In this document: positions 30-25,941 of the stretch, piece by piece
Numbering within the stretch: the first letter of the stretch is position 1
Layout of the letters: every line of letters starts with the position of its first letter
Assembly (NCBI GenBank): GCA_027068485.1
Contig: JAMOSB010000012.1
Location: forward strand, 48,347 to 112,346
Direction of reading: 5' to 3'
From: Sulfurovum sp.
GTDB taxonomy: Bacteria > Campylobacterota > Campylobacteria > Campylobacterales > Sulfurovaceae
DNA length: 64,000 nucleotides
The notes under the pieces: model-generated
The model's database searches: none
What the model saw: only the letters and a program-made list of their open reading frames with translations
Told to the model about the DNA's origin: nothing
Translations under genes and position numbers: made by a program

Positions 30-1463
30 ATGATCGAGCAAAAAGAGGATGATCCCAACCACTTTTGTGGTAGCTACTTCAAGGGGCTAACATGGCAAAA
101 GGCTGATACGGATGCGATGGAGTATGTCTACTACCTCACCAAAGAGGTCTTTGACAACGCGTCTCAGAAGATCTTCAACGCCACCCATGGTGGAAGACTA
201 GAGGTCTTTCCTCGTGTTGCGTTTGAGTCTCTTTTCCCACATGCCAACCACACCAAACTCTCTGTACCTATCACAACAACCGATAGGACTAAGACCCTTG
301 TTGTATCGATCAATCCTGATTTGGAAAATAGCTTTGGACACTATCTTCACTATGATCTTACTATCGCAAATCATCTCTCTAATCAGAGTCAACTCTTTAT
401 CCTTGCCAATAAAACCCTCTCAGAGGAGTTAGGCAAAACCCATCGTACCATTCTACCTACCTTCACACATAAAAGCTGGAATATTGGACTCCCCGAACAA
501 CGAACCCCTAGCAGAGATAAGCAGTTTACCCTAGAGCTACTCAATGCTATCGCAACACTCGATCACCTACAAACTAACAAACTCTTCTATCTCTATACGG
601 GGAGCCTCAACCATGCTGAGCTTATCTATACTATACTTGAAGCCTATGATATTCCCTATACTTTCCATATCAATCTCTTTAGAGAGCATTTCAATGTTGA
701 GTACATCCAATCACACCTAACAGAGACCTTGGCACGCCTAGAGAAACTTAGTCAAACAAAACAGATCAAGCTCTATATCGACTCAGAAGAGATGAATGAG
801 ACCTTCCAATCACTCCTAGGTGTAACATTTGCTAAATGGACGATGTTTCCTGTGACCAACTTTGATGTCCCCACAACACCACTCCTAGAACAAACCCCCA
901 ACCAACACCTCAATGTCATCTTCCCTGGCAATCTTAGATTAGAGAAAGGGTTTGACCTCACCACCTCTGCAGTCAATAGGCTCGCCAAACAAAACCTCAA
1001 TGTCTATATCCGTTCTACGCTCATCAATATTAAAGATAAAGCAATTGCAGACTTATTAACACAGATTGATAATCGTGTTAATATCATTGAGGGAGTACTA
1101 AGTGAATCAGCGTACCTCTCACTTATGAAACAGGCTGATATCATCATCCTTCCCTATCGGGTATCAGAGTTTAAGACCCGTACTTCAGGCTTGATGGCAG
1201 ATGCCCTCTACCTCTCCAAACCTGTCATCGCTGCCAAAGGCACATGGATGGGCAATCTTATTGAGCAGTATGAGAATGGTGTGGTATTTGATGATGGAGA
1301 TGCCCAAAGCCTCATTGATGCCGTACTTAAAGTAGAAGCCTCGATCGATAGCTATCGAGCCAATGCAACTGCTTGTAGTCGTGTATGGCGTGAAAAGAAT
1401 AGTGTAAATCTATTAATCGAAACAATCTTTGGACTGGAGACGAATAATGAAAAACAAGATTAA
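30..1463 (+). CDS. Glycosyltransferase-like protein with a GT-B/GT1-type C-terminal half. The frame is open back to nt 3, so the true start could lie upstream of the window.
   Basis: 477-aa ORF. The C-terminal segment ADIIILPYRVSEFKTRTSGLMADALYLSKPVIAAKGTWMGNLIEQYENGVVFDDGD resembles the donor-binding half of GT1/GT4 enzymes. A GAGGGGG SD-like run lies just 5' of ATG 30. There is no in-frame stop between nt 3 and 29. Confidence 0.6.
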   Translation: MIEQKEDDPNHFCGSYFKGLTWQKADTDAMEYVYYLTKEVFDNASQKIFNATHGGRLEVFPRVAFESLFPHANHTKLSVPITTTDRTKTLVVSINPDLENSFGHYLHYDLTIANHLSNQSQLFILANKTLSEELGKTHRTILPTFTHKSWNIGLPEQRTPSRDKQFTLELLNAIATLDHLQTNKLFYLYTGSLNHAELIYTILEAYDIPYTFHINLFREHFNVEYIQSHLTETLARLEKLSQTKQIKLYIDSEEMNETFQSLLGVTFAKWTMFPVTNFDVPTTPLLEQTPNQHLNVIFPGNLRLEKGFDLTTSAVNRLAKQNLNVYIRSTLINIKDKAIADLLTQIDNRVNIIEGVLSESAYLSLMKQADIIILPYRVSEFKTRTSGLMADALYLSKPVIAAKGTWMGNLIEQYENGVVFDDGDAQSLIDAVLKVEASIDSYRANATACSRVWREKNSVNLLIETIFGLETNNEKQD

Positions 1464-1755
1464 TCAAAATGAGATTATGGTAAGGCTACTGCTTTCTTCA
1501 GCAGAAGAACAAGAGAGTGAGATTGAAAATCTCAAAAATCAAGTTAAAAAACTTACGCATGAAAATAAACTCTTAGGAAGAAAAAGAGAACATCTTCTAC
1601 AAGATAAACTCACCCTACAAAATAAATTAAAAAAATATGAGGGTCATCTTAAACAATCAATATGCACACTACGAGATACAAAATTTATCAAAGCACCTCT
1701 TAAAAAATATAGTGCCTACAAAGCAATGATTACTATTTTTCATACGATTAAGTAG
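1447..1755 (+). CDS. Small stand-alone coiled-coil protein (about 102 aa), K/E/L/N-rich.
   Basis: GGAGA at 1436-1440 lies 6 nt before ATG 1447, and the start overlaps the end of the upstream ORF. Heptad-like sequence EIENLKNQVKKLTHENKLLGRKREHLLQDKLTLQNKLKKYE. The tail PLKKYSAYKAMI resembles the tail of the next protein. Confidence 0.55.
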   Translation: MKNKINQNEIMVRLLLSSAEEQESEIENLKNQVKKLTHENKLLGRKREHLLQDKLTLQNKLKKYEGHLKQSICTLRDTKFIKAPLKKYSAYKAMITIFHTIK

Positions 1756-1853: not shown

Positions 1854-3485
1854 GTGATTGTTTGGCTCGTATCGTACCCTCAAAGTGGTGATGCTTTAGT
1901 GCGTCACCTCCTACACCAAATCTTTGGGATTGAAGTAGAGACGGTTGAGGAGCAAAAGCAATCACTCACCACCCTCCGTCAAGCAGACACCCCCACCTAT
2001 CTTACAACCCACCACCATCCAGATCAGACGATTTATCCTGAAGATAAGGTACTCTATCTACTTCGTGATGGACGAGAGAGTACACTGCTCTACTACCAAG
2101 CCATAGCATCGGACTATACTTTGCGTGAGGTGATTGTAGGAGAGGTACCTCTAGGCAATTGGGGTACACATCTAGGCGCATGGGATCCCCAACAGCGTCC
2201 CAATACCCTCTTGATACACTATGAAAAACTCCTCCAAGACCCCTATAGCCAGATCCCTTCTATCGCACACTTTTTGGTATGCACACCACAAGAGAAGCCC
2301 CTCTCTTCACTCTCTGCCTATACAACACCTATCACACACACCTATAGCCCAGCAGAGGAGAACCTCTTCTATGCCAAACACTCCCTACGACTCAAAGAGT
2401 ACGGCTATACTATTCCTCCTCACCCCTCTGCCCCCTCTAGTGAGCTAAAGATCTCAGTGATTACCCCCTCTTTGAATGCGGGAGAGTATATTGAGCGGGC
2501 GATAGAGAGTGTACTCGATCAGCACTACCCAAACTTTGAACATATTGTTATTGATGCACAATCGACCGATAACACCCTAGAGATACTACGACGCTATCCT
2601 CATCTTAAGTGGATTAGTGAACCAGACACAGGACAATCCAATGCCATGAACAAAGGCTTCGCCCTTGCCTCAGGAGATATCATCGTCATCCTCAACCATG
2701 ATGACTACTTCATCCCCAATGCCTTTCATAGTGTTATCCCTTACTTTGAAGCAGGTGAGCAGTTTGTTGTAGGCGATCTTCTTGTACATGATATGACACA
2801 ACGCGAAGTGGTAGTCTCACCCCAAACCACACATGAAGCGATCCTACACCACTGGCGTAAACGCGACTATATCACTCCCACCCATGCACGCTCCTCCTTC
2901 CCCAACAACCCCGTACAGTACTTCTATACCAAAGCCGTACAGCACGCATGCCCATTTAACGAATCCAACCACTTTACCATGGATATTGAGTTTCTTATCG
3001 ATGCCTCAGCGTCTTACTCATTTTGTAAAATCGATACTATTTTAGGAGTCTACTTCCGCAGAGAAGATGCCAAAGCAGTCGTAGCAACCAGTGATGCACT
3101 CCACTACTGGACTTTTGAGACCTTTGCCTATATCGATCGCTATATTCAGCACTGGAAGCCTGAGAAGCTCCTACAATTCAAAGCTGCACAATCACAAGGC
3201 TACCTAGAGCATATCAGCCACAAGCTACTCCAAACGATTACCCAGCAAAACAAAGAGATCAAACAACAACAGCAACAGATTGAGCAACAAACACAAGAGA
3301 TAGCAGAGACGACCCATACACTCTCAGAGGTGACTCATCAGCTCACCTCTCTAATGGAGAGTATCGAAGAGATCACAACGCACCCCATCACCTCACAACC
3401 ACTCAAAAAGCTCAAAGCCTACCAAACCATGCTCGATAGATTCGATCATACTAGAAAGGAGAGACCCCTATGTCTATCAAAGTAA
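1854..3485 (+). CDS. Three-module fusion: N-terminal sulfotransferase-fold domain, central GT2 glycosyltransferase, C-terminal Q/E-rich coiled coil.
   Basis: GTG start. Sulfotransferase-like blocks are VSYPQSGDALV (5'-PSB-like loop), THHHP, KVLYLLRDGRESTLLYY (3'-PB-like RxxRxxxxS), GNWGTHLGAW and LLIHYEKLLQDPYSQIPSIAHFL. GT2 block: ISVITPSLNAGEYIERAIESVLDQHYPNFEHIVIDAQSTDNT...NHDDY. Coiled coil: QQNKEIKQQQQQIEQQTQEIAE. Confidence 0.8.
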   Translation: MIVWLVSYPQSGDALVRHLLHQIFGIEVETVEEQKQSLTTLRQADTPTYLTTHHHPDQTIYPEDKVLYLLRDGRESTLLYYQAIASDYTLREVIVGEVPLGNWGTHLGAWDPQQRPNTLLIHYEKLLQDPYSQIPSIAHFLVCTPQEKPLSSLSAYTTPITHTYSPAEENLFYAKHSLRLKEYGYTIPPHPSAPSSELKISVITPSLNAGEYIERAIESVLDQHYPNFEHIVIDAQSTDNTLEILRRYPHLKWISEPDTGQSNAMNKGFALASGDIIVILNHDDYFIPNAFHSVIPYFEAGEQFVVGDLLVHDMTQREVVVSPQTTHEAILHHWRKRDYITPTHARSSFPNNPVQYFYTKAVQHACPFNESNHFTMDIEFLIDASASYSFCKIDTILGVYFRREDAKAVVATSDALHYWTFETFAYIDRYIQHWKPEKLLQFKAAQSQGYLEHISHKLLQTITQQNKEIKQQQQQIEQQTQEIAETTHTLSEVTHQLTSLMESIEEITTHPITSQPLKKLKAYQTMLDRFDHTRKERPLCLSK

Positions 3486-5662
3486 GTCTCATTATCCCCG
3501 TTTATAATGTTGAGTCCTATCTACGCAACTGTTTAGACTCCGCCTGCACGCAAACCCTCCAAGAGATTGAGATTGTCGTCGTCAACGATGGCTCTACCGA
3601 TCAGAGTCTCTCCATACTTACGGAGTATCAAGCTAAAGATCCTAGAGTCAAACTCTTCTCACAATCCAATCAAGGGCAAGGCTACGCACGCAACCTTGCT
3701 ATACGAGAAGCCGTAGGGGAGTTTATCTTTTGCCTTGATGGTGATGATATCATCGCTCCACATACACTCGCCCAACTCTACCAAAAATCCCAAGATGAAG
3801 CCTCCGATGTAGTCATCTGTGGCTGGCAACGCATCGATGAGATGAGTGGTGATATCCTTGCTACGCGTGAAGATATCCATGCACTCAAATCCTATGACAA
3901 AGAGACCATCAACCGTACGATTTTTTCAGGACGGATGAATCTCATGGCGTGTGCATCACTAATCAAACGCTCTATTATCACCGATAACTACATCCTCTAC
4001 CCCAACCTCCTCCATGAAGATCTCTATGTCATGCCAAAGGTCTACTTCTTTGCCAAGAAGATTACAATCGATACAGAGAACCTCTACAGCTGGTTGGTAC
4101 GCAGTACCTCCACCACCAATACCTTTACGATGCAACACGCCATTGGTATCGCGGGAATTGCCAATGAGTGGCGTATGTTTCTACTCAAAGAGGGGGTCTA
4201 TGAGAGCTATAAAGATGCCTATGTCCAAGGGGTAATTGCCTATCTTGACTCCTATCTACGCAAAGTCTATGCGTTTGCCACCCCCCAAGAGAAAGACCAA
4301 CTCCTTGAGTTTCTCACTGATACTTTACGGGGGATTCATGAGCTTGCAGACTACAGCATCATCCTCTCAGACAAGGAGCTTGAAGCACGCAAATCGCTAC
4401 TACACTTCTACCAAAATGTCACCTCTCACAAACAGACAAACTGTAAAAAACTTGTCGTTCAAAATAGCCTACTCAAATCACAACTCAATGAGATAAAATC
4501 CTCACGAGGCTACAAACTACTACTCAAGTACTACCGTACACGCGAACGGCACCTCCCGATAGGAAGTCGACGCAGAGAGGTGGTAAAACATCTTGCCAAC
4601 TTCATCGCCAAGCGAGAGCTCTCTGTCCTCAAACCCAACAAAAACCCCAAACGCCCTACACCCCAGATGCACTATGACATTATCTTTCTACCACACAAAG
4701 ATTATCAAGTCTGGACTATGGGGCTTATCACCCGCGCACTCAAAGCAGAAGGCATTACCGCGTGTATGATGGATCTCACCGACTACTACAAGGATGAAGG
4801 GGCGAGAGAGGCGATTAAACAGTTTGAGGATATTGACTTTAAAGACCTCTCTGTACTACTAGAGCATCAAGTCTCCTATGATGCCTTGATCTGTATGAAT
4901 GATTGGGATCAGAAGGTAACACGCCCCTTGATCTTAGAGGCACAAAAAGATGGTAAAAAAACCATTGGGATTATCGAAGGGATCAATGACTTCCATGATA
5001 GTGATATCCCATGGCAACGCCACGCTTACCAGACCGTAGAGTATCTCCTTATGACAGGGGAACACGATAGAACCTTCTTCCCAAGCAAAACAGACAAGAG
5101 CTATGTCATCGGGGTACCTCGTCTCCAAGAGCTGATGCAAGAGACTCCACACTTCCCCAAAAAGCCCCTAGCCGTTATCAATCTCAACTTCTCTTATGGT
5201 ATCTTAGAAGATCAACGCGATGCATGGTTAACCAGTGTCCTAGAGGGGTGTAGCATTGCCAATATCGATTATGTGATTACACAGCACCCCGCAGACCATG
5301 CCGATTTGAGTGACTACCATGTCTCAACCAAAAATATGTATGATACAATTCGAGAAGGGACGATTATCATTAGCCGTTTTGGATCGATTATCCTAGAGGC
5401 ACTTGCGATGGGTAAACCCGCTATCTATCACAACCCGCATCAGGAGAAAGTAGTGAAGTTCCAAGACCCTATGGGTGCCTATAGCACCAGCCAAACCGTC
5501 CAAGAGCTAGCAGAGGCGATTAGGTTTGAACTCGGCTTATCGGTAGATTATCGAGAACGAGCCAACACCTTTTTGAATCACCACTGCAATATCAACCAAA
5601 CCCAGAGTTCTGCGACCCTTGCAGCCAAAGTTATCACCACAATCCTAAAGGAGCACTCATGA
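3470..5662 (+). CDS. Two-domain glycosyltransferase: N-terminal GT2, short coiled-coil linker, and a C-terminal GT-B-like domain (TagF/capsule-synthesis-like).
   Basis: AGGAGAG RBS, and a 16-nt overlap with the upstream gene. GT2 block: VSLIIPVYNVESYLRNCLDSACTQTLQEIEIVVVNDGSTDQS...LDGDD. The C-terminal IISRFGSIILEALAMGKPAIYHNP is typical of GT-B donor-binding halves. Confidence 0.8.
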   Translation: MSIKVSLIIPVYNVESYLRNCLDSACTQTLQEIEIVVVNDGSTDQSLSILTEYQAKDPRVKLFSQSNQGQGYARNLAIREAVGEFIFCLDGDDIIAPHTLAQLYQKSQDEASDVVICGWQRIDEMSGDILATREDIHALKSYDKETINRTIFSGRMNLMACASLIKRSIITDNYILYPNLLHEDLYVMPKVYFFAKKITIDTENLYSWLVRSTSTTNTFTMQHAIGIAGIANEWRMFLLKEGVYESYKDAYVQGVIAYLDSYLRKVYAFATPQEKDQLLEFLTDTLRGIHELADYSIILSDKELEARKSLLHFYQNVTSHKQTNCKKLVVQNSLLKSQLNEIKSSRGYKLLLKYYRTRERHLPIGSRRREVVKHLANFIAKRELSVLKPNKNPKRPTPQMHYDIIFLPHKDYQVWTMGLITRALKAEGITACMMDLTDYYKDEGAREAIKQFEDIDFKDLSVLLEHQVSYDALICMNDWDQKVTRPLILEAQKDGKKTIGIIEGINDFHDSDIPWQRHAYQTVEYLLMTGEHDRTFFPSKTDKSYVIGVPRLQELMQETPHFPKKPLAVINLNFSYGILEDQRDAWLTSVLEGCSIANIDYVITQHPADHADLSDYHVSTKNMYDTIREGTIIISRFGSIILEALAMGKPAIYHNPHQEKVVKFQDPMGAYSTSQTVQELAEAIRFELGLSVDYRERANTFLNHHCNINQTQSSATLAAKVITTILKEHS

Positions 5663-6333
5663 AACTCAAAGCCCTACTCCCGATGAAAGGGACCTCCGAA
5701 CGCGTCCCCAATAAAAATATGAGAGATTTTGATGGTGCACCGCTCTATCATGCTATTATGAAATCACTACTTGCCTCTCAGTATATCGAGGCGGTAGTGA
5801 TCAATACCGATAGCCAGATCATCGCCCAAGATGCCAAGAAGCACTTTGGGGAGCGTGTCATCATCATCGACCGTCCCGAAGCGATCCAAGGAGGCGATGT
5901 CTCGATGAACCTCATCATCGACTATGATCTCCAACAGCTTGGAGGAGAACACTTCCTACAGACACACAGCACCAACCCACTCTTGCGTGCGGAGACGATT
6001 GACCATGCAGTAGAGGCGTACTTTGCCAAGCTTGATCAACACGATTCGCTCTTTGGGGTGACACGGGTACAGACACGCTTCTATGACAAAGATGCCAACC
6101 CTATCAACCACAACCCCCAAGAGCTTCTACGCACCCAAGACCTTGAGCCTCTCTATGAGGAGAACTCCAACTTCTACCTCTTCTCCAAAGCCTCCTTTGA
6201 AGCATCCCAGAAAAAACGCATCGGGCTTACCCCTCAGATCTTTGAGGTCAACAAACTCGAAGCGGTCGATATCGATGAGCCAGAGGATTTCAAACTCGCA
6301 GAACTACTACATATACATAAGGATCACCTATGA
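5659..6333 (+). CDS. Acylneuraminate/CMP-sugar-acid cytidylyltransferase family protein (NeuA/KdsB-like fold).
   Basis: ATGA overlap with the upstream gene. N-terminal LLPMKGTSERVPNKNMRDFDGAPLYHAIMKSL and HSTNPLL are characteristic of the CTP_transf_3 family. Confidence 0.85.
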   Translation: MKLKALLPMKGTSERVPNKNMRDFDGAPLYHAIMKSLLASQYIEAVVINTDSQIIAQDAKKHFGERVIIIDRPEAIQGGDVSMNLIIDYDLQQLGGEHFLQTHSTNPLLRAETIDHAVEAYFAKLDQHDSLFGVTRVQTRFYDKDANPINHNPQELLRTQDLEPLYEENSNFYLFSKASFEASQKKRIGLTPQIFEVNKLEAVDIDEPEDFKLAELLHIHKDHL

Positions 6334-7094
6334 GTCTAAAGAAAAAACTACAAAACAATCAGCTGACCCTCGGTAGCTGGATTATGATGGGCAACACCAT
6401 GAGTGTCGAGGTGATGGCACTGGCTGGATTTGAGTGGTTGGTGGTCGATAGCGAACACACCGCGATGGATATGGAGACGATACAGACCCTTATCGCCACA
6501 ATCCAAGCCAAAGGGATCAAAGCCCTTGTACGCGTGAGCAAAAACGAAGAGGTGGTGATCAAAAAAGTACTCGATATGGGTGCAGATGGGATCATCGTCC
6601 CGATGGTCTGCTCTCAAGATGATGCCAAGCAAGCTGTCGCCTACGCCAAGTACCCCCCTGTGGGCAAGCGTGGAGTGGGACTCTACCGCGCACAGCAGTT
6701 TGGTATGGGCTTTGAGGCGTATAAGAAGTGGGTCGATGAGGAGCTTGTCATTATCGCTCAGATTGAGCATATCGATGCAGTCAACTCGATCGATGCGATT
6801 TTAGCGGTTGAGGGGATCGATGGGACAATTATTGGTCCTTATGATCTCTCAGGTAGTATGGGATACCCAGGGGAGTTTGAGCGAGAGGATGTCAAAGAGG
6901 CTGTCCAAAAAGTCCTCGATCGATGTCACGCACACAATATCCCCTCAGGGTTCCATGTTGTCGATACCGACCCTGCCAAACTCCAACTCAAGATAGACCA
7001 AGGGTGTACCTTCCTTGCGTATGGTATCGACTACTTCTTTATGCGAGATGCGGCTATCTCTGGGATGAAAACCTTACGAGAGGAGAATGCGTAG
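6330..7094 (+). CDS. HpcH/HpaI-family class II (divalent-metal) pyruvate aldolase.
   Basis: ATGA overlap. LGSWIMMGNTMSVEVMALAGFEWLVVDSEHTAMD...LVRVSKNEEVVIKKVLDMGADGIIVPMV...IAQIEHIDAV...GPYDLS matches the 2-keto-3-deoxy-acid aldolase family. Confidence 0.85.
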   Translation: MSLKKKLQNNQLTLGSWIMMGNTMSVEVMALAGFEWLVVDSEHTAMDMETIQTLIATIQAKGIKALVRVSKNEEVVIKKVLDMGADGIIVPMVCSQDDAKQAVAYAKYPPVGKRGVGLYRAQQFGMGFEAYKKWVDEELVIIAQIEHIDAVNSIDAILAVEGIDGTIIGPYDLSGSMGYPGEFEREDVKEAVQKVLDRCHAHNIPSGFHVVDTDPAKLQLKIDQGCTFLAYGIDYFFMRDAAISGMKTLREENA

Positions 7095-8048
7095 ATGAAA
7101 GTATTTGTATCCACCCATCCCTTCTCCTCCACCTCACCCCTCCCAATGCAACTCGTAGAGGAGCATCGCATTGAGCTAAGCCTCAATGAACACGGCAGAA
7201 AGATCACCTCCGCAGAGCTAGCAGAGGATATCAAAGATGCCGAGGTACTCATCGCAGGGACAGAGAAGATCACCCAAGCAGTCTTTGAGAATGCCCCCAA
7301 CCTCAAGCTCATCTCACGGGTTGGGATCGGACTCGATGGGATCGACTTTGATCTGTGTCAGCAGTATGGTGTACGCGTCGCCTACACCCCTGATGCCCCC
7401 ACGATGGCAGTAGCAGAGCTGTGTGTGGGGATGATACTTGACCTTGCACGCAAGATCTCCACCACCAATACCCAGATCAAAGCAGGTATCTGGCACCGTC
7501 ACATGGGGACACTCCTCTATGGCAAAACGGTAGGGATCTTTGGGATGGGACGCATCGGCAAGAGCCTCATTCACCTCCTTAGTGGGTTCAATGTCACCTT
7601 CAAAGTCTATGATACCACCCCTGATCTCGCCTTTGGACGACTCTATGGTGTGGAGTTTGTCTCCAAAGAGAGCGTACTCTCCCAGAGTGATATCCTCTCG
7701 GTCAATGTCCCACTCAAAGCCGATACCCTTGACTATATCACCCTCAAAGAGCTTAAGATGATCCAACCCCACGCACTCCTCATCAACACCGCAAGAGGGG
7801 GGATCGTCAATGAAGCCGACCTCTATACGGCACTCAAAGAGGAGATCATCGCAGGGGCTGCGATCGATGTCTTTGAGGAGGAACCCTACACAGGAGTATT
7901 GACCCAACTTGACAATGCCCTACTCACCTGCCACATGGGTGCGAGTACCATCGATAGCCGTACCGATATGGAGGTACAAGCCCTAGAGGAGGCGATACGC
8001 TACCAAAACAACCTCCCCCTCAAAAATGAGGTATCAAGCAATGCCTAA
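7095..8048 (+). CDS. D-isomer-specific 2-hydroxyacid dehydrogenase (phosphoglycerate/glycerate dehydrogenase-like).
   Basis: Starts 1 nt after the upstream stop. NAD motif GKTVGIFGMGRIGKSL, plus ...LINTARGGIVNEADL... and ...CHMGAST. Confidence 0.85.
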   Translation: MKVFVSTHPFSSTSPLPMQLVEEHRIELSLNEHGRKITSAELAEDIKDAEVLIAGTEKITQAVFENAPNLKLISRVGIGLDGIDFDLCQQYGVRVAYTPDAPTMAVAELCVGMILDLARKISTTNTQIKAGIWHRHMGTLLYGKTVGIFGMGRIGKSLIHLLSGFNVTFKVYDTTPDLAFGRLYGVEFVSKESVLSQSDILSVNVPLKADTLDYITLKELKMIQPHALLINTARGGIVNEADLYTALKEEIIAGAAIDVFEEEPYTGVLTQLDNALLTCHMGASTIDSRTDMEVQALEEAIRYQNNLPLKNEVSSNA

Positions 8049-8922
8049 AAAAATCGTCGTCTTTGGAGGCAATGGATTTATCGGAAGCTATCTGATTGAG
8101 GAGTTGCTAGACCACGGCTACCATGTCATCTCAGCCGATCTCACCCCCTCTAAGTATGTCGATGACCGATACTACACACGGTGTGATATCCTAGATAAGG
8201 CTCAGGTCACTGCCTTGGTAGAGGGTGCCTCTATCGTCTACAACTTCGCAGGCTTTGCCAACCTCGATGATGCCATCGCCAACCCCACCAAAGCCCTAGA
8301 GCTCAATGTCATGGGTAACCTCAATATCTTAGAGGCGTGCAAGACACACCATGTCAAGCGGTTTGTCTATGCCAGTAGTGCCTATGCGATGAGTGACAAA
8401 GGCTCCTTCTACGGTATCAGCAAACTCACCTCTGAGAAGCTCACCGAGGAGTACTACAAGAAGTTTGGACTGGAGTTTACTATCGTGCGTTATGGTTCAG
8501 TCTATGGAGAGCGAGACTACCACAACAACTACATCTACAATCTCCTCAAGCAGTCCGTTGCCACACAGGAGATCCACCATAGTGGCGATGGGGAGGAGAT
8601 ACGGGAGTATATCCACGCAGCAGATGTCGCCAAACTTGCACGGGAGATTATCGAGTCAGATGACTTTATCAATGAGCATATTATCCTTACAGGGGTCGAG
8701 CGGATGCAACGCAGAGAGCTTTTTGAGATGATCAATGAGATCTTAGGGGGGAGCCTCACCATCAACCTCAATGATGATGGCTACCACAACCACTACAAAA
8801 CCACCCCCTACTCCTTCCACCCTACACGCAGTAAGAAGCTTGTCGCCAACCCCTATATCGATATGGGGCAGGGGCTGTTAGATTGTCTCAAAGATATCGA
8901 GGAGAACCAGCCCAATGACTAA
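8041..8922 (+). CDS. NAD-dependent epimerase/dehydratase (extended SDR).
   Basis: MPKKIVVFGGNGFIGSYLIEELL Rossmann motif, and YGISK (YxxxK). I prefer ATG 8041 (GAGG 8 nt upstream) over ATG 8026. 8-nt overlap with the upstream gene. Confidence 0.8.
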   Translation: MPKKIVVFGGNGFIGSYLIEELLDHGYHVISADLTPSKYVDDRYYTRCDILDKAQVTALVEGASIVYNFAGFANLDDAIANPTKALELNVMGNLNILEACKTHHVKRFVYASSAYAMSDKGSFYGISKLTSEKLTEEYYKKFGLEFTIVRYGSVYGERDYHNNYIYNLLKQSVATQEIHHSGDGEEIREYIHAADVAKLAREIIESDDFINEHIILTGVERMQRRELFEMINEILGGSLTINLNDDGYHNHYKTTPYSFHPTRSKKLVANPYIDMGQGLLDCLKDIEENQPND

Positions 8923-9586
8923 ACGCCTCTACCTCTCCCACCTACTCGATAGCCAGACCCCCACCTATGGCAACCGCAACCAGTTTGTCTGTGAAAGACG
9001 CTCAGCTATCGCCAAGGGGGATGTGGCCAATGATAGTCACATCGAGACGACCGTACATATCGGCACCCATATCGATATGCCCTATCACTTCTTTGAGGAG
9101 GGGCAGACGATAGAGGATTTTGATAGTGACTTTTTTGCGTTTAACCGCGTACACTTTCTCTCCTTTACTCCCCAAGAGCGGGTGATCCATCAGGAGCTTA
9201 TCGATCAGCTAGAGCCGATCGAAGAGAAAGCCTCTATCGAGCTACTCATCATCAAGACAGGCATCTGCCATCAGCGTACGACTCCCTACTTCTGGGAAGA
9301 GAACTATGGATTTGCTCCTGAGGTGGCACACTACCTCCGCACCCACTTCCCCAAGGTACGCGTAATTGGGTTTGATAGTATCTCCGTCTCTAGCTTTGCA
9401 CACCGTATGGTTGGGCGTGAGGCACATCGAGCCTTTCTTGATCCCTCTCACCCTATCCTACTCATCGAAGATATGGATCTATGTCTGCTTCAGGCAAGCA
9501 GTCAGATCAAACACCTCACCGTCGCACCCCTACGCATCGCACAGTGCGATGGACTACCCTGTACCATCATAGCGGAGATAGCATAA
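8915..9586 (+). CDS. Cyclase-family protein (kynurenine-formamidase-like metal hydrolase fold).
   Basis: GGAGAA RBS. The HIGTHIDMPYHF motif is typical of the PF04199 cyclase/formamidase family. Confidence 0.8.
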   Translation: MTKRLYLSHLLDSQTPTYGNRNQFVCERRSAIAKGDVANDSHIETTVHIGTHIDMPYHFFEEGQTIEDFDSDFFAFNRVHFLSFTPQERVIHQELIDQLEPIEEKASIELLIIKTGICHQRTTPYFWEENYGFAPEVAHYLRTHFPKVRVIGFDSISVSSFAHRMVGREAHRAFLDPSHPILLIEDMDLCLLQASSQIKHLTVAPLRIAQCDGLPCTIIAEIA

Positions 9587-9771
9587 TGGCCATTTTTGAT
9601 ACCTCAATGGATCTCATCAACTACCACGACACCACCGACTACTCAGAGTTCACCCTACACGCAGGAGATATCGCAATCTTCTACCCCGATGATGCCCATA
9701 TGCCCTGCGTCCAAATAGACACCCCTACCAAGGTGGTCAAGAGTGTAGTCAAGGTCGCCTACCATGGCTAA
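9586..9771 (+). CDS. 61-aa ORF matching only the C-terminal third of YhcH/YjgK/YiaL (DUF386, EbgC-like) proteins; probably a gene remnant or mini-protein.
   Basis: TAATG overlap with the cyclase stop, with GGAGA 7 nt upstream. FTLHAGDIAIFYPDDAHMPCVQIDTPTKVVKSVVKV resembles the conserved C-terminus of the roughly 150-aa family. The N-terminal two-thirds are absent. Confidence 0.45.
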   Translation: MAIFDTSMDLINYHDTTDYSEFTLHAGDIAIFYPDDAHMPCVQIDTPTKVVKSVVKVAYHG

Positions 9772-10390
9772 GATCCACACCATTATCTTCGATTTTGATG
9801 GGGTGATCCTCGACTCTGTGCCTGTCAAGACAGAGGCATTTAGACGACTCTTTGAGGCGTTTCCCTCGGAGCAGGTTGAGCAGTTTATCGCCTACCATGA
9901 GTACAATGGCGGGATCTCCCGCTATGTGAAGATCCAGTACTTCTTTGAGCAACTCCTCCAAACCTCTATCTCTCAAGCAGAGATATCCTCCTACGCCACA
10001 CGCTACTCAGAGTTGACCAAAGAGGAGCTAAGCAAGCCTCAGTATCTCATCACCCAGACCCTCACCTTTATCCAAGCCCACTACCAGCACCTCAACCTCC
10101 ATATCGCATCAGGTGCTGATCAGGCAGATCTTCGCTATATCTGTAATGCCTTGGGACTCTCTAAGTACTTTCTCACTATCGGTGGCTCCCCCACCCCCAA
10201 AGGGGAGATTGTCAAAGAGATTCTCTTGGCACACCACTACACGCAAGAGGAGACGATCTTGATTGGGGATAGTATCAATGACTTTGCCGCAGCAGAGGCT
10301 AACCATATCGGATTTTATGGCTTTAACAACCCCGATCTCCAAGCCGACCACCCCTATATCGAGCAGTTTGAGACCGTTGACTTTCTATGA
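9764..10390 (+). CDS. HAD-superfamily hydrolase (phosphatase, subfamily IA-like).
   Basis: IIFDFDGVILDS (DxDG motif I), and ILIGDSINDFAAA (motif IV). Confidence 0.85.
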   Translation: MAKIHTIIFDFDGVILDSVPVKTEAFRRLFEAFPSEQVEQFIAYHEYNGGISRYVKIQYFFEQLLQTSISQAEISSYATRYSELTKEELSKPQYLITQTLTFIQAHYQHLNLHIASGADQADLRYICNALGLSKYFLTIGGSPTPKGEIVKEILLAHHYTQEETILIGDSINDFAAAEANHIGFYGFNNPDLQADHPYIEQFETVDFL

Positions 10391-22289: not shown

Positions 22290-22898
22290 CTAAACTTCAC
22301 CCACGAGATAGCCCCGCTCCTCAAGGTAGCTAAGCACCGATGCCACTAACTCCTCTAGGCTCATCTGCTCACCTCTTAGCCAGATCTCAGGTGTAGTGGG
22401 GGCTTCATAGGGTGAGGAGATCCCCGTAAAGTTGGGGATCTCACCACTGCGTGCCTTACGATATAACCCCTTGGGGTCTCTTGCTTCACAGATCGCTAGG
22501 GGGGTATCGACAAATACTTCGATAAACTCCCCCTGCTCTACGACCCCTCTCACCTGCTCTCTATCAGCTTGAAAAGGGGAGATAAATGCACTCAAGACGA
22601 TCATCCCCGCATCGACAAAGAGCTTGCCCACCTCCCCGATACGACGGATATTCTCCACCCGATCCCTATCAGAAAAGCCCAATCCTCGATTGAGTCCTAG
22701 ACGGATATTGTCCCCATCAAGGAGATAGGTGTGGTGTCCCCGCGTGACGAGTTCCGCCTCCACCGCATTGGCGATGGTCGATTTGCCACTGCCACTCAAC
22801 CCCGTAAACCAAAGAATCGCAGGTTTTTGAGCCTTGAGTCTTGCCCGTTGTAGCTTGGTGACTTGTGGCGTATGCCATGTGAGATGCTTAGTTGACAT
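22290..22898 (-). CDS. cysC: Adenylyl-sulfate (APS) kinase, canonical.
   Basis: [20 protein letters not shown]-loop, [32 protein letters not shown], and FISPF. Start taken at ATG 22898; the alternative is GTG 22946. Confidence 0.85.
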
Positions 22899-23613
22899 AG
22901 TGACGCTTGATATAGGTGACGATCTGCTCTGTTGCCTCCTCGACACTCAGACGATCCGTATCGATGATGATCTCGGCATGTTGAGGCTCCTCATAGGGGT
23001 CATTAACCCCTGAGAAGTAGGGCAACTCCCCACGCAACGCTTTGGCATAGACCCCCTTGTAGTCTCGTGCTTGACAACTTTGAGGGGTCGCTTTGATATA
23101 GACTACTACCGTATTTTTGACCATGTGACGGATCGTTTTTCGACTCTCGGTATAGGGGGAGACAAAGGAGGCTACCGTAGAGATCGCATTATTTTGTAGG
23201 GTTTTGATCAGGTGTCCTATCCGTTTCATATGACGGTTACGATCTTCTCGACTAAACCCAATATTGGGTACCACATCGCGTATCTCTTTGGAGTCGAGTC
23301 GCTCAAGGGGGATATCCAGCTTCAACAGCTCCTCATAGACACGGTTGGCAATCGTCGTCTTACCACTCAGTGGCAACCCTGTAAACCAGAGATTAAACGG
23401 CTCAATACGCTCCCGCCCCCATCGTACCTTAAACCACACCCGCTCATGAAGCCAGTAGAGTCCTACCTTGAGCAGTGTCTCAATCATCCCCGCAGCAATC
23501 GCAAGATCGAGCCGATCAAAGAAGAAGTAGACAATCACAATGGTCGTTGTCGTCGCAATAACACGCCAGCTTATCCCCTTGGCGATGGAGCGGGTATTGG
23601 TCTCTTTATACAT
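22888..23613 (-). CDS. Fusion of a DUF2061-type membrane domain to a divergent APS-kinase-like domain.
   Basis: N-terminus [24 protein letters not shown]...[10 protein letters not shown]. The kinase domain has P-loop [16 protein letters not shown], but LDSKEIR replaces the canonical LDGDNxR. Confidence 0.8.
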
Positions 23614-25028
23614 TAGATTGCTTTACAACCCCACTCAGGAAAGTGTGATCGGATATAGGCATTGAGTGCGACCTCTGAGGCACTATAGGTACGCGGTGGG
23701 GTGATTGTCCTATCACTCTCTCGCTTTGCCACATCGACAATCATCCCTGCCCCTACGGTGTTGTTAGTGAGACGATCGATTAAGATAAAGCTCCCTGTCT
23801 GACGGTTCTGTCGATAGGCATCTACTGCGATAGGACGGGTGAGGCGGAGGCGTGCAGAGGCGATATCATTGAGCTGAAGTTGCTCCGTCTGCTCTCGCTC
23901 ATAGGTGTTGATATCGATACGGTAGTTGATATGCTCCACCACCCCCGCAATCAGACTACTCGCACACTTGATATCATAGGTTCGCCCCACCTCCATGGCT
24001 ACCTCATCCATCCAGACGAGCATCACTTTGAGCATATTGGAGACGCGTGGCAGGGTATTGGTATGTACCAGCATATCCCCACGACTGATATCCACCTCGT
24101 CTGTGGTGGTCACCGTCACCGCCATCTTTTTAGAGGCGACTTGGGATACCTCTCCTGCATTGAGGATCTCCTTGATATGGGTACTCTTCCCCGAGGGCAA
24201 TACCGTAATCGTATCCCCTACTTTGACCTCTCCACTCGCAACCGTCCCGCAAAAACCTCTAAAGTCTAGATTGGGGCGATTGACATACTGCACAGGGAGG
24301 CGAAAGGACTCAGCATGAGGCGATCGCTCCACCTTCAGCCCATCAAGAAGGCTCAGGAGTGGCTCTCCCTTATACCACCCAAGGTGAGGTGTTCGCTCTA
24401 CGACATTATCTCCCGTCAAAGCACTAAGCGGTATCGTATAGGTGTGGGGGATCCCTAACTCTTGAGCAAGAAGTCCATAGGAGGCTTTGATCTGCTCAAA
24501 CACCTCTTGACTAAAGTCGACTAGATCCATCTTATTGATCGCAACAATCACATGCTCTATCCCCAAGAGGTTGACAATATAGCTATGCCGTCGGGTCTGT
24601 GTGAGTATCCCCTTTCGTGCATCGATAAGGATGATTGCCACATCTGCGGTGGAGGCTCCTGTAACCATATTGCGTGTATACTGCTCATGCCCTGGAGTAT
24701 CAGCGATGATATATTTGCGATGCTCTGTCGCAAAGAAGCGGTACGCCACATCGATGGTGATCCCCTGCTCTCGCTCACTCTGCAATCCATCCACAAGCAG
24801 TGCAAGATCGATCGCTTCACCTGTGGTACCATACTTCTGGCTCTCACGCTTCACAGAGGCGAGTTGATCATCTAAGACCATCTGACTATCATAGAGTAGT
24901 CGCCCAATAAGTGTACTCTTCCCATCATCAACACTACCACAGGTGAGAAAACGGAGCATATCTTTCTGCTCATGTGCTTTAAGGTACGCCTCTATATCGG
25001 TTGTGATGGCTTCTTTTTGGTTTGACAT
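23613..25028 (-). CDS. cysN: Sulfate adenylyltransferase subunit 1 (GTPase).
   Basis: GSVDDGKSTLIGRLL, DTPGHEQY and NKMDL GTPase motifs. No fused APS-kinase domain. Confidence 0.9.
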   Translation of the reverse strand: MSNQKEAITTDIEAYLKAHEQKDMLRFLTCGSVDDGKSTLIGRLLYDSQMVLDDQLASVKRESQKYGTTGEAIDLALLVDGLQSEREQGITIDVAYRFFATEHRKYIIADTPGHEQYTRNMVTGASTADVAIILIDARKGILTQTRRHSYIVNLLGIEHVIVAINKMDLVDFSQEVFEQIKASYGLLAQELGIPHTYTIPLSALTGDNVVERTPHLGWYKGEPLLSLLDGLKVERSPHAESFRLPVQYVNRPNLDFRGFCGTVASGEVKVGDTITVLPSGKSTHIKEILNAGEVSQVASKKMAVTVTTTDEVDISRGDMLVHTNTLPRVSNMLKVMLVWMDEVAMEVGRTYDIKCASSLIAGVVEHINYRIDINTYEREQTEQLQLNDIASARLRLTRPIAVDAYRQNRQTGSFILIDRLTNNTVGAGMIVDVAKRESDRTITPPRTYSASEVALNAYIRSHFPEWGCKAI

Positions 25029-25029
25029 C

Positions 25030-25941
25030 CTAAAAATACCCCTCTATCTTTTTGCGTTCCATCGCTCCCTCACTCTCCTTGTCGATAAGTCGCCCCTCTC
25101 GCTCACTACTCGTAGAGAGGAGCATCTCTTGGATAATCTCAGGGAGGGTGGAGGCGGTGGAGGCGATGGCTCCTGTGAGTGGATAGCACCCTAGCGTACG
25201 AAACCGTACCATCTCTTTGGTAGCAGTTTTGCGTAGTGCCTCAGGGACACGGTCATCATCGACAAGGATCTTTGTCCCCTCATAGGCTACCACCTCTCGC
25301 TCTTTGGCAAAGTAGAGTGAGGGGATCTCAATAGATTCGAGATAGATATACTGCCAGATATCTAGCTCTGTCCAGTTGCTCAAAGGGAAGACGCGTACCG
25401 ACTCCCCCTTGTTGATTGAGGTATTGTAGAGACTCCACAGCTCGGGGCGTTGGTTTTTGGGATCCCATCGGTGGTGCTGATCTCTAAACGAGAAGATACG
25501 CTCCTTAGCACGGCTCTTCTCCTCATCACGCCTAGCACCTCCGATGATCGCATCATACCCCCCCGCATCGAGGGCTTGCTTGAGTGCCTCAGTCTTCATC
25601 ACCTCCGTATGGACTCTACTCCCATGGGTGAAGGGGCTGATATCCATCGCAATCCCCTTAGGGTTGGTGTGTACTACCAGATCGAGTCCCAACTCTCTCG
25701 CACGCCGATCACGAAAGGCGATCATCTCATGAAACTTCCAGAGCGTATCGACATGGAGAAACTTCAAGGGAGGCTTAGCAGGAGCAAAGGCTTTCATCGC
25801 GAGGTGGAGCATCACAGAGCTATCTTTGCCCACACTATACATCATCACAGGATTCTCAAAGACCGCTACCACCTCACGGAGGATATGGATCGACTCCGCT
25901 TCAAGCTGTTTGAGATGGGTCAGTCGCTCTTGGGTTAGCAT
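25030..25941 (-). CDS. cysD: Sulfate adenylyltransferase subunit 2.
   Basis: [15 protein letters not shown]..., [14 protein letters not shown] (PP-loop SxGxDS), and a C-terminal KKIEGYF. Confidence 0.9.

Follow-up and report, generated by a model that had tools for sequence, protein, structure and literature searches.

A putative GT2 enzyme of Wzm/Wzt O-polysaccharide assembly in Sulfurovum carrying a probable gene-fusion-derived pseudo-sulfotransferase domain

Does a protein that joins a sulfotransferase (ST)-like domain to a GT2 domain in an O-antigen locus also sulfate the glycan? The question is raised by a single gene in a 64,000-nucleotide stretch of a Sulfurovum sp. genome, hereafter the window. 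An earlier note, made from the DNA letters, had proposed that its product adds a sugar and then sulfates it, possibly as a chain-terminating cap, and had stated that glycan sulfation was not established in Campylobacterota LPS. A literature search likewise gave no report of sulfated LPS in Campylobacterota. The host belongs to this group, its SerRS being ~85% identical to Sulfurovum sp. sequences. The ABC-transporter-dependent O-antigen system that the note had supposed was also found. The Wzm and Wzt genes (ABC2_membrane, 270 aa; ABC_tran, 396 aa; L010) lie directly upstream of the window and of a 1159-aa gene that reaches into it, and residues 280-388 of Wzt gave a Wzt_C-like match (E = 1e-6; 29.2 bits, below the cutoff of 30.4).

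The gene begins with GTG, runs uninterrupted for 1632 nt and overlaps the next gene by 16 nt at its 3′ end, in tight operon packing (Table 1). Its tri-modular architecture is directly evident from Pfam matches to Sulfotransfer_1 and Glycos_transf_2 and from the long helix behind them in the AF2 model, and each motif string quoted in the earlier note was found in its place. An identical protein was present in four samples, each assembled independently, and the ORF is therefore not an assembly artefact. Among the neighbours, the 102-aa coiled-coil-only protein has a similar 107-aa ORF in the syntenic locus L008. An adjacent cassette is assigned to the synthesis of a CMP-ulosonic acid. The C-terminal domain of the 730-aa neighbour was considered as a known Kdo transferase, and this assignment was rejected because no Pfam or PDB sequence match was obtained.

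Table 1 Features of the gene and its neighbours (window positions)
Feature	Position	Strand	Basis or remark
Whole ORF: ST-like domain, linker, GT2, coiled-coil helix, C-terminal helix	1854..3485	+	543 aa
Sulfotransferase-fold domain, residues 1-185, predicted catalytically dead	1854..2408	+	Pfam PF00685, AF2, Foldseek
Degenerate 5′-PSB loop SYPQSGDAL (family SYPRSGNTF)	1872..1898	+	Comparison with relatives
LTTHHH: catalytic His53 kept, preceding Lys replaced by Thr (family KTH)	2001..2018	+	Comparison with relatives
RDGRESTLLYY: 3′-phosphate Arg71 kept, 3′-phosphate Ser79 replaced by Leu	2064..2096	+	Comparison with relatives
SSL/SAY: 12-residue deletion site, NPxFFR of the FFRSG..SWK PAPS loop gone	2304..2321	+	Alignment A5
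Pro/Ser-rich linker TIPPHPSAPSSE at the putative gene-fusion junction	2409..2444	+	Next codon CTA
Intact GT2 (GT-A) domain, residues 198-432	2445..3149	+	Pfam, alignment A4, AF2
Q/E-rich continuous helix, residues 436-509, presumed coiled coil	3159..3380	+	AF2 pLDDT >90
Basic C-terminal helix, residues 516-536, conserved post-coil motif PLKKLKAY	3399..3461	+	AF2, alignment
102-aa coiled-coil-only protein, same post-coil motif (APLKKYSAYKAM)	1447..1755	+	Neighbour
730-aa protein: GT2, coiled coil, unassigned C-terminal domain	3470..5662	+	Neighbour
PAPS synthesis genes in LPS-core operon	22290..25941	-	Two APS kinases, CysN, CysD
CysD	25030-25941	-	
CysN	23613-25028	-	
Two APS kinases (cysC)	22290-23613	-	

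The N-terminal domain matched the sulfotransferase fold by both an HMM and a structure comparison, as the earlier note had assigned it. Residues 31-155 hit Pfam Sulfotransfer_1 (PF00685) above the gathering score (E = 4e-12, 46.5 bits against a cutoff of 22), and a Foldseek search with the AF2 model of the domain (pLDDT 75.6) returned only sulfotransferases among its top 50 matches, with TM up to 0.66. The domain spans ~185 residues instead of the ~150 given in the note, and the claim that all the blocks of the fold were present proved too generous. The match covers profile positions 54-193 of 255 only, Lys51 and Ser79 are replaced by Thr and Leu, and both the PAPS loop and a 21-residue segment are gone. 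The full-length AF2 model was made without ST coverage and its residues 1-166 are uninformative; a joint MAFFT alignment of ST and GT2 relatives placed the ST sequences wrongly onto GT2. The closest family comprises uncharacterised bacterial Sulfotransfer_1 proteins beginning MIVWLASYPRSGNTF, with more than 1000 representatives at 50% clustering, and the N-terminus of the 543-aa protein, MIVWL, matches that of the family exactly.

The residues lost from this domain were identified by comparison with the 149 nearest family representatives. A canonical 5′-PSB loop (PKSGTT or PRSGNT) carries a basic residue and Ser/Thr, and the window domain has PQSGDA instead. Position 10, Arg in 143/143 relatives, is Gln; position 13, Asn in 141 of 143, is Asp; and position 14, Thr or Ser in 142 of 143, is Ala. 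The Gln and Asp-Ala substitutions pointed out in the earlier note are thus real, and Asp13 places a negative charge inside the phosphate-binding loop. Position 51 is Lys or Arg in all 149 relatives and Thr in the window domain (TTH); Lys106 of EST, likewise two residues before the catalytic His, is said to have been given a catalytic role by Kakuta et al. in 1998. The catalytic His53 itself (His108 of mouse EST) is kept, as in 149/149 relatives. Arg130 and Ser138 make up the 3′-phosphate motif of mouse estrogen ST (PMC4199319); in the window domain Arg71 is present, but Ser79, invariant in the 149 relatives, is replaced by Leu. The C-terminal region IV loop (RKGxxGxWK or GxxGxxK, with the role of GxxGxxK in sulfotransferases given in PMC4199319; FFRSGxxDSWK in the ST family) is deleted. 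His53 and Arg71 are the only canonical PAPS or catalytic elements left.

Three deletions of 21, 4 and 12 residues were located in alignment A5, the first of which takes out the conserved DIGAD...VGH..LP segment. The spacing from F140 to F172, across the lost PAPS loop, is 33 residues in the window domain against 41-48 in 141/141 relatives, and FFRxG is present in 108 of 128 relatives, most of the others having close variants. A frameshift or assembly error was rejected as the source of the missing loop, since no remnant was found in the other frames and the four assemblies are identical. At the 35 columns that are at least 90% conserved in the family, the window domain departs nine times (family mean 1.2, maximum 6), and among 142 family members none diverges further. 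It keeps the remaining 26 columns, and its five radical changes all fall at PAPS-contact or catalytic positions. The changes at Arg10, Lys51 and Ser79 and the loop deletion occur in 0/149 relatives. The damage goes well beyond the two substitutions from which an altered activity or donor preference had been suggested, with five family-invariant or near-invariant residues replaced and the third PAPS-binding loop deleted. Because the PSB residues, the catalytic Lys, the 3′-phosphate Ser and this loop are lost, neither PAPS binding nor transfer would be expected. Sulfation by this protein is unlikely on these residues, and the proposed succession of sugar addition and sulfation by one protein did not survive the comparison.

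The downstream GT2 domain presents the opposite state of preservation. Residues 201-333 matched Pfam Glycos_transf_2 (PF00535; E = 2e-28), AF2 gave pLDDT >95 over residues 200-432, and the Foldseek matches included WrtF, K4CP, SpsA and TarS. The motifs IDAQSTDNT, DTGQSNAMNKG, NHDD, NPVQYFY and TMDIEFL are present, all 41 invariant columns of alignment A4 are kept, and this half is 62% identical to its orthologs with zero gaps. The nucleotide-binding and DxD-type positions D234, D239, D258 and D283-D284 (NHDD) are invariant in A4, the first position of the DxD-type motif being Asn across the whole subfamily. The candidate catalytic-base Asp lies in M376-D377 (TMDIEFL), which is likewise invariant and aligns with 'vDyd' of K4CP. 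In the full-length AF2 model the domain is followed by helix 436-509, of 74 aa or about 11 nm, a segment whose length differs widely between orthologs, and then by helix 516-536. The PLKKLKAY-type motif of the latter is common to GT2-coiled-coil orthologs and ST-coiled-coil family members. An amphipathic membrane helix was considered at this C-terminus and rejected, as the hydrophobic moment (0.77; net charge +3) was equalled by 27% of shuffled sequences.

The gene neighbourhoods of related loci indicate how the two halves may have come together. In Wzm/Wzt loci of other Sulfurovaceae, STs of the MIVWLASYPRSGNTF family are observed directly beside the orthologous GT2-coiled-coil gene: in L017 an intact ST-coiled-coil gene stops 6 bp before it, and in L016 four ST genes lie upstream of it. 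Many members of the family consist of an ST, a coiled coil and a P[LI]xK..AY helix, and some carry fused GT modules (ST-CC-GT2 in P0069 and P0070; ST-X-CC in P0091 and P0133). Since the closest GT2-coiled-coil orthologs have an intact ST gene immediately upstream, an in-frame fusion of two adjacent genes, an ST(-coiled-coil) gene and a GT2-coiled-coil gene, is the most likely origin of the protein. Linker TIPPHPSAPSSE is followed by CTA (Leu) at the position of the start Met of GT2 homologs. An internal start for a separate GT2 protein was rejected on this ground, and a search of the sequence gave no conspicuous promoter- or terminator-like signal. The intact sister-locus STs share 54-61% identity with 0-3 gaps among themselves, against 30-37% identity and 34-37 gap columns between the window ST domain and intact STs of the L016/L017 type. 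The STs of these neighbours are putative orthologs of the window domain, and a different origin could partly account for its faster divergence. The ST-rich sister loci have Wzt C-terminal domains that are similar to one another, and the C-terminal domain of the Wzt here is not related to them. A rule that the ST family as a whole represents terminators in ABC-transporter loci was discarded, as three members from Planctomycetota (P0003, P0007 and P0009) are located in neither glycan nor Wzm/Wzt clusters.

Relatives sharing the state of the window protein were searched for in three ways. A word-index search for orthologs with the fusion or the degenerate motifs yielded only stand-alone STs at ~28% identity, a GTDB scan for fusion orthologs yielded only distant GT2s, and an exhaustive search of 1.84 billion representatives for closer relatives gave none better than E = 1.6e-32. 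The members of the protein's own cluster are near-identical, with no relatives at intermediate divergence, and no clade conserving the degenerate ST variant is known.

Taken together, the protein is probably a GT2 module of Wzm/Wzt O-polysaccharide assembly that carries a pseudo-sulfotransferase domain derived from gene fusion; judged from its sequence, its activity is very probably sugar transfer without sulfation. The intact GT2 domain would add the sugar during O-polysaccharide assembly, a coiled-coil stalk is probably formed by the ~74-residue helix, and the third putative working part is the conserved basic C-terminal helix, which recurs in the neighbouring coiled-coil proteins. The N-terminal domain keeps its fold and would neither bind PAPS nor transfer sulfate. 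After the fusion, the ST half would have decayed and the GT2 half would have been conserved. With the start codon of GT2 gone, the ST-derived leader would have to remain open and foldable, which would explain the preserved structural core of the ST-like domain.

This account of the kept core bears on the alternative in which the ST-like domain, though without catalytic activity, has taken on a new role as a binding module, which we consider unlikely. The losses are selective, with 26 of the 35 core positions retained and the radical changes all at cofactor contacts, and selective loss of a cofactor site with a kept core is typical of pseudoenzymes. The model of the ST-like domain is confidently folded, and the domain occupies the position of the terminator modules in WbdD-type proteins. 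Human SULT4A1, a conserved non-catalytic ST-fold protein, still binds small ligands (PMC1847840). However, with no internal start the GT2 domain has to be translated and folded by way of the leader, a requirement that accounts equally well for the kept fold. The conserved 21-residue segment is deleted as well, no other family member diverges so far, and no clade is known to conserve the variant.

A further alternative credits the N-terminal domain with sulfotransferase activity at a divergent site for PAPS or another donor, so that a sugar is added and then sulfated as a terminating cap recognised by Wzt. We regard it as highly improbable. The joint presence of PAPS and ST genes has been described as the hallmark of clusters for sulfated polysaccharides (PMC11641403), and cysDN and two cysC genes are found in the same LPS region. 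The earlier note had cited these genes, 20 kb away, as fitting sulfation; they are indeed present, but as support they are circumstantial, belonging to a separate minus-strand LPS-core operon. No other recognisable sulfotransferase was detected in the 64-kb window, where ORFs of at least 150 aa over 1-61 kb were covered, or in the 10 kb upstream, about 74 kb in all, and neither the unannotated 348-aa protein beside CysD nor the 412-aa protein beside Wzm gave an ST signal, so that a consumer of PAPS is missing in the region. The ST fold with His53 and Arg71, the order of catalytic modules before a coiled coil shared with WbdD-type terminators, the Wzm/Wzt pair with a Wzt_C-like domain, and the intact STs of the same family beside the orthologous GT2-coiled-coil gene in sister loci are also in keeping with such an activity. 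Yet the domain has substitutions at five PAPS-contact or catalytic positions and lacks the third PAPS loop and the 21-residue segment, and none of the 149 relatives shares the changes at invariant residues or the deletion. In SULT4A1 much milder changes suffice to abolish PAP binding, Asp13 of the window domain brings a negative charge to the phosphate-binding loop, and the Wzt C-terminal domain is unrelated to that of the ST-rich sister loci. Moreover, the Wzm/Wzt cluster of Aeromonas salmonicida contains an ST-domain ORF to which no sulfate in its O-antigen corresponds (PMC4483657).

There is also a very slim chance that the N-terminal domain transfers sulfate or another group through a rebuilt site, the protein adding a sugar and sulfating it as a cap read by Wzt. 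His53 with the extra His54 and His55 could contribute to such a site, and the donor would possibly lack a 3′-phosphate, as APS does. If true, the protein would be the first sulfate-type chain terminator, with the first sulfated LPS in Campylobacterota, and a sulfotransferase with an unprecedented active site. A reading of the entire gene as a decaying or non-functional relic within a degenerating O-antigen locus is very improbable, for despite the three deletions in the ST half and a deletion remnant of DUF386 elsewhere in the locus, the GT2 half keeps every invariant column at 62% identity to its orthologs without gaps, and the frame is uninterrupted, identical in four samples and tightly packed in its operon. 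The DUF386 gene at the locus is an internally deleted remnant of 61 aa, compared with 164 aa in the syntenic L008.

A GT2 enzyme with a pseudo-sulfotransferase domain has consequences for annotation. The label 'sulfotransferase domain-containing' together with nearby PAPS genes would suggest a sulfated O-antigen, which is unsafe for this protein. It would be a bacterial example of a pseudo-sulfotransferase born by gene fusion, its fold kept since translation of the downstream enzyme passes through it. For the sister Sulfurovaceae loci, by contrast, sulfated O-polysaccharides and possibly sulfate-type chain termination are a testable Campylobacterota prediction, because intact ST-coiled-coil genes adjoin the GT2-coiled-coil gene in Wzm/Wzt(Wzt_C) clusters.

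Several known systems resemble parts of this protein. The MIVWLASYPRSGNTF family shares with the window domain its fold, its N-terminus and, out of 35 highly conserved core positions, 26. Loss of Arg10, Asn13, Thr14, Lys51, Ser79 and the FFRSG..SWK loop, together with the three deletions, is peculiar to the window domain, which is joined straight to GT2 without a coiled coil of its own, unlike many family members. SULT4A1 (PDB 1ZD1; Foldseek rank 2) likewise has the fold of an ST and an impaired cofactor site, its experimentally shown failure to bind PAP resulting from one aromatic-to-Leu change and a shortened PAP loop (PMC1847840). However, this conserved animal protein stands alone, retains the PSB Lys and has far milder losses.

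For the GT2 domain, the closest solved relatives are WrtF, a GDP-L-fucose transferase of Rhizobium tropici (PDB 9OMH; sequence E = 2.8e-13; Foldseek E = 4e-18, TM 0.72), and the GlcA-transferase domain of the chondroitin polymerase K4CP (2Z86; profile E = 4.8e-26). WrtF acts in a Wzm/Wzt operon with gmd/fcl (PMC12595478), to which the GDP-mannose/gmd/reductase set upstream of the window can be likened, and NHDD fits the 'NXDD' type of related GT2 fucosyltransferases. Nevertheless, identity to both is only about 20-23%, and both are without an ST-like domain or coiled coil. A donor sugar assignment was rejected, as WrtF (GDP-Fuc) and K4CP (UDP-GlcA) score about equally, and because the two use different donors their specificity is not transferable to the window GT2.

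As to coiled-coil chain terminators and molecular rulers, the protein was compared with WbdD (Escherichia coli O9a and Klebsiella pneumoniae O3), WbbB (K. pneumoniae O12) and those of K. pneumoniae O4 and O7. Catalytic modules lie N-terminal to the coiled coil in WbdD-type proteins (PMC11231755). As with these systems, the locus is Wzm/Wzt-dependent, its Wzt has a putative extra C-terminal domain (with a Wzt_C match just below the Pfam cutoff), several coiled-coil proteins are encoded in one locus, and N-terminal catalytic modules are followed by an extended helix and a short C-terminal helix (in the window protein, by the AF2 model). In contrast to these terminators, the would-be modifying domain is degenerate and no terminating chemistry can be assigned to it, the helix is shorter (74 aa, a single predicted helix), and the C-terminal helix is not demonstrably amphipathic. 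A terminal sugar might be added by the GT2 domain of the window protein.

The ORF under study, which starts with GTG, encodes 543 amino acids and carries every motif string quoted for it in an earlier note made from the nucleotides alone, each at the place stated. Every relative begins at the same point as its N-terminal MIVWL, which validates the GTG start. Two Pfam domains were identified, Sulfotransfer_1 over residues 31-155, with a score that passes the gathering threshold (E 4e-12), and Glycos_transf_2 over residues 201-333 (E 2e-28). The AlphaFold model shows a confidently folded GT2 domain (residues ~200-432, pLDDT >95), then a single continuous helix of 74 residues (436-509, about 11 nm), and a second helix (516-536) set off from the first by a short break. 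The protein was identical in four separately assembled samples, so its features are not errors. Judged by sequence, the host is a Sulfurovum-like member of the Campylobacterota, with a SerRS ~85% identical to named Sulfurovum sequences. The ORF probably encodes a functional GT2-coiled-coil module that belongs to a Wzm/Wzt O-polysaccharide system and bears a fusion-derived pseudo-sulfotransferase domain. The ORF, modules and motifs described in the earlier note stood and the completeness of its sulfotransferase domain did not; its interpretation, a fusion that adds and sulfates a sugar, possibly as a chain-terminating cap, was partly supported.

Features of the window and of the comparison loci
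Feature	Location	Strand	Remark
1159-aa protein	window 30-1463; L010 6538-10017	+ (window)	C-terminal end in window
102-aa coiled-coil protein with post-coil basic motif, first	window 1447-1755	+	APLKKYSAYKAM
ORF under study	window 1854-3485	+	543 aa
Post-coil basic motif, second	window 3399-3461	+	QPLKKLKAYQTM
730-aa GT2-coiled-coil protein	window 3470-5662	+	C-terminal module, residues about 380-730
Post-coil basic motif, third	window about 4480-4540	+	SRGYKLLLKYYR
CMP-sugar cassette	window 5659-10390; L008 8084-12807		63-86% aa identity between loci
DUF386 gene	window 9562-9747	+	61 aa; 164 aa in syntenic L008
"Sulfatase"-family protein	window 18023-19858	+	membrane-anchored, about 610 aa
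"Sulfatase"-family protein	window 20442-22271	-	membrane-anchored, about 610 aa
cysD, cysN, two APS kinase genes	window 22290-25941	-	tightly packed LPS-core/lipid A operon
348-aa protein	window 25995-27041	-	directly beside cysD
Wzt	L010 5351-6541; L016 10155-11492; L017 6940-7581
Sister sulfotransferase-rich loci	L017 5930-11068; L016 167-11492		loci of closest GT2-coiled-coil orthologs P0013 and P0014

An exhaustive search of 1.84 billion representatives yielded 1067 members of the sulfotransferase family, and the PAPS-contact and catalytic positions were compared by aligning the window domain with the best 149 of them. In sulfotransferases, the 5'-phosphate is contacted by region I and the 3'-phosphate by Arg130 and Ser138, while the GxxGxxK loop makes up region IV (PMC4199319). 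The basic residue of the 5'-phosphosulfate loop at position 10 (Lys48 of estrogen sulfotransferase), Arg in 143/143 relatives, is Gln in the window; position 13 is Asp instead of Asn (141/143), and position 14 Ala instead of Thr/Ser (142/143). Two residues ahead of the catalytic His, position 51 is Thr instead of Lys/Arg (149/149), and the 3'-phosphate Ser at position 79 (Ser138 of estrogen sulfotransferase; 149/149) is Leu. The third cofactor element, FFRSGxxDSWK, the family counterpart of RKGxxGxWK / GxxGxxK, has its canonical form in 108 of the 128 relatives whose tail is complete, and most of the remainder carry a close variant. A 12-residue deletion takes it out of the window domain, where the flanking conserved Phe-Phe spacing is 33, versus 41-48 in 141/141 relatives; no remnant of the loop was found in another frame of the window gene. 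Two more deletions (21 and 4 residues) also cost the domain the family-conserved DIGAD...VGH..LP segment, among others. The Pfam match spans only profile positions 54-193 of 255, and PDB sequence matches to cytosolic sulfotransferases end near residue 225 of about 294. Of the cofactor and catalytic residues, the domain retains only the catalytic His53 and the 3'-phosphate Arg71. The loop changes at positions 10, 13 and 14 that had been noticed earlier are real, and Lys51, Ser79 and the FFRSGxxDSWK loop are lost as well.

Across the 35 family columns that are at least 90% conserved, the window domain departs at nine (family mean 1.2, maximum 6). Four departures are conservative, and the five radical ones coincide exactly with the positions that contact the cofactor or take part in catalysis; the 26 columns kept are the fold-defining Trp, Gly, Pro and Tyr. 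Among 142 members, a set picked for similarity to it, the window domain nevertheless diverges most (mean identity 0.34 vs 0.42 ± 0.02). Its model (pLDDT 75.6), whose 50 best PDB neighbours are all sulfotransferases, indicates that the fold is kept. In human SULT4A1 the damage is limited to an aromatic-to-Leu change and a shortened PAP loop, yet the protein is inactive and shows no PAP binding even at 90 mM (PMC1847840). Since the window domain is much more damaged than SULT4A1, it is predicted neither to bind PAPS nor to transfer sulfate.

The best full-length matches of the 543-aa protein are GT2-coiled-coil proteins of 300-370 aa without a sulfotransferase domain (49-56% identity), one of them from a Sulfurovaceae MAG. 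At L017, the GT2-coiled-coil ortholog is preceded, at a distance of 6 bp, by the end of an intact sulfotransferase gene (YPRSGNT, KTH, RDGRESTLS and FFRSGKINSW, then a coiled coil and NPFKKMEAYRK), in a cluster with Wzm, Wzt_C and two additional sulfotransferase genes. At L016, four sulfotransferase genes precede the ortholog and Wzm/Wzt(Wzt_C) follows it. In the window, the codon at the homologs' start Met is CTA (Leu), just after a Pro/Ser-rich linker. The simplest history is that a neighbouring upstream sulfotransferase gene would have fused in frame to the GT2-coiled-coil gene, its own coiled coil being dropped. The GT2 core is 62% identical to its orthologs without gaps (orthologs among themselves, 70%), whereas the sulfotransferase half is 30-37% identical to the intact enzymes of L008, L016 and L017 with 34-37 gap columns (among themselves, 54-61% and 0-3 gaps). 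This is consistent with relaxed constraint on the sulfotransferase half, strict orthology of which is not proven. Because the GT2 is translated only through the sulfotransferase-derived leader, which must be open and foldable, selection for such a leader would preserve the structural core with no need for a catalytic role. Repurposing of the dead domain as a binding module, a variant of the pseudo-sulfotransferase reading, is possible but rather unlikely.

The gene order upstream was read from L010, a metagenome contig extending beyond the window start: ManC, Gmd, epimerase/reductase, a 412-aa protein, Wzm, Wzt and a 1159-aa DUF4915/MptE-like/GT4 protein, then the 102-aa coiled-coil protein, the 543-aa ORF, the 730-aa protein and the CMP-sugar cassette. 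Wzm and Wzt bear out the earlier premise of ABC-transporter-dependent O-antigen export; Wzt combines ABC_tran with a marginal Wzt_C match (E 1e-6; 29.2 bits, just under the cutoff of 30.4).

An active N-terminal sulfotransferase, as the earlier note proposed, is improbable. Its strongest point is that the PAPS-synthesis genes mentioned there do exist, as CysD, CysN and two APS kinases, with no other sulfotransferase detected in the 64-kb window or 10 kb upstream, and finding PAPS and sulfotransferase genes together is regarded as a hallmark of sulfated polysaccharide clusters (PMC11641403). However, the loss of PAPS-contact residues and of the third loop outweighs these genes, because the genome is seen only in part, PAPS may serve other pathways, and an Aeromonas salmonicida Wzm/Wzt cluster has a sulfotransferase-domain ORF yet no matching sulfate in its O-antigen (PMC4483657). 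Furthermore, Wzm and the Wzt nucleotide-binding domain are 42-55% identical across L010, L016 and L017, whereas the Wzt C-terminal domain of L010 is unrelated to those of sulfotransferase-rich L016 and L017, which are homologous (E 4e-14); this is weak evidence for a different cap or terminal epitope here. The PAPS genes lie on the opposite strand from the ORF, among genes for a GT9 heptosyltransferase, a lipid A acyltransferase, LicD proteins, WaaL, a MsbA/PglK-type exporter and phosphoethanolamine-transferase-like proteins. One APS kinase bears an N-terminal DUF2061 membrane domain. The two "Sulfatase" proteins are of phosphoethanolamine-transferase type, one with DUF3413; they flank heptose genes and abut the APS kinase genes. 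The 348-aa protein has an N-terminal transmembrane segment, no Pfam match and stretches such as ITEVNWP, and looks similar to TIM-barrel glycoside hydrolases.

The window GT2 keeps all 41 subfamily-invariant columns, including D234, D239, D258, N281-H-D283-D284 and M376-D377, and a decaying, non-functional gene for the 543-aa protein is improbable. The closest solved relatives of the GT2 domain are WrtF and the K4CP GlcA-transferase domain; no donor is assigned, since their donors differ and identity is only ~20-23%. WrtF, a GT2 enzyme that transfers L-fucose from GDP-L-fucose, belongs to a Wzm/Wzt O-polysaccharide operon, and the window GT2 likewise lies in a Wzm/Wzt locus. Given the upstream gmd/reductase genes and the NxDD motif, a GDP-6-deoxyhexose is an attractive candidate donor.

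The cassette encodes CTP_transf_3 (cytidylyltransferase), HpcH/HpaI aldolase, 2-hydroxyacid dehydrogenase, epimerase/dehydratase, cyclase, DUF386 and HAD phosphatase proteins, which together resemble a pathway for making a CMP-activated 2-keto-3-deoxy (ulosonic) sugar acid. Its DUF386 gene is an internally deleted remnant, MAIF being joined to the last 57 or so residues, the second deletion-type lesion in the O-antigen locus. The 1159-aa protein, encoded directly after Wzt, combines DUF4915 and a GT4 domain with an MptE-like domain of the kind present in Maf-type nonulosonic-acid transferases, and may be the ulosonic-acid transferase of this system. With both cassette and MptE-like domain present, we speculate, by analogy with Kdo caps, that the ulosonic acid could be an alternative, Kdo-like cap. 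The 102-aa protein, whose gene overlaps the stop codon of the 1159-aa gene, consists only of a coiled coil and basic motif; in each of the three consecutive 102-, 543- and 730-aa proteins, a related basic motif comes after a coiled coil. GT2-coiled-coil orthologs also carry the P[LI]xK..AY motif, as do at least 13 of 103 long sulfotransferase-family members; it may be a common element for docking or membrane association.

The more interesting lead is at L016 and L017, Sulfurovaceae-type Wzm/Wzt(Wzt_C) clusters with 3-4 apparently intact sulfotransferase genes. Because intact sulfotransferase-coiled-coil genes adjoin the GT2-coiled-coil gene there, sulfated O-polysaccharides are predicted in Sulfurovaceae; the clusters are genomic evidence for such polymers, and possibly for sulfate-type chain terminators, in Campylobacterota.

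In layout, the 543-aa protein resembles the WbdD-type terminators (defined in PMC11231755): its catalytic modules lie N-terminal to an extended helix, and a short helix closes the C-terminus. Compared with theirs, the extended helix, presumed to be a coiled coil, is short (74 residues). Helix 516-536 is conserved and basic, its amphipathicity not demonstrable, and the sulfotransferase-like domain, going by its residues, cannot be credited with terminating chemistry. Membership of this class is therefore not established, given also the marginal Wzt_C. In the 730-aa neighbour, the C-terminal 350 residues had no Pfam or PDB sequence match, the sole match being a weak NCBIfam PseG-like one (E 0.012); this catalytic-looking module stands beyond the coiled coil, as in WbbB-type proteins.
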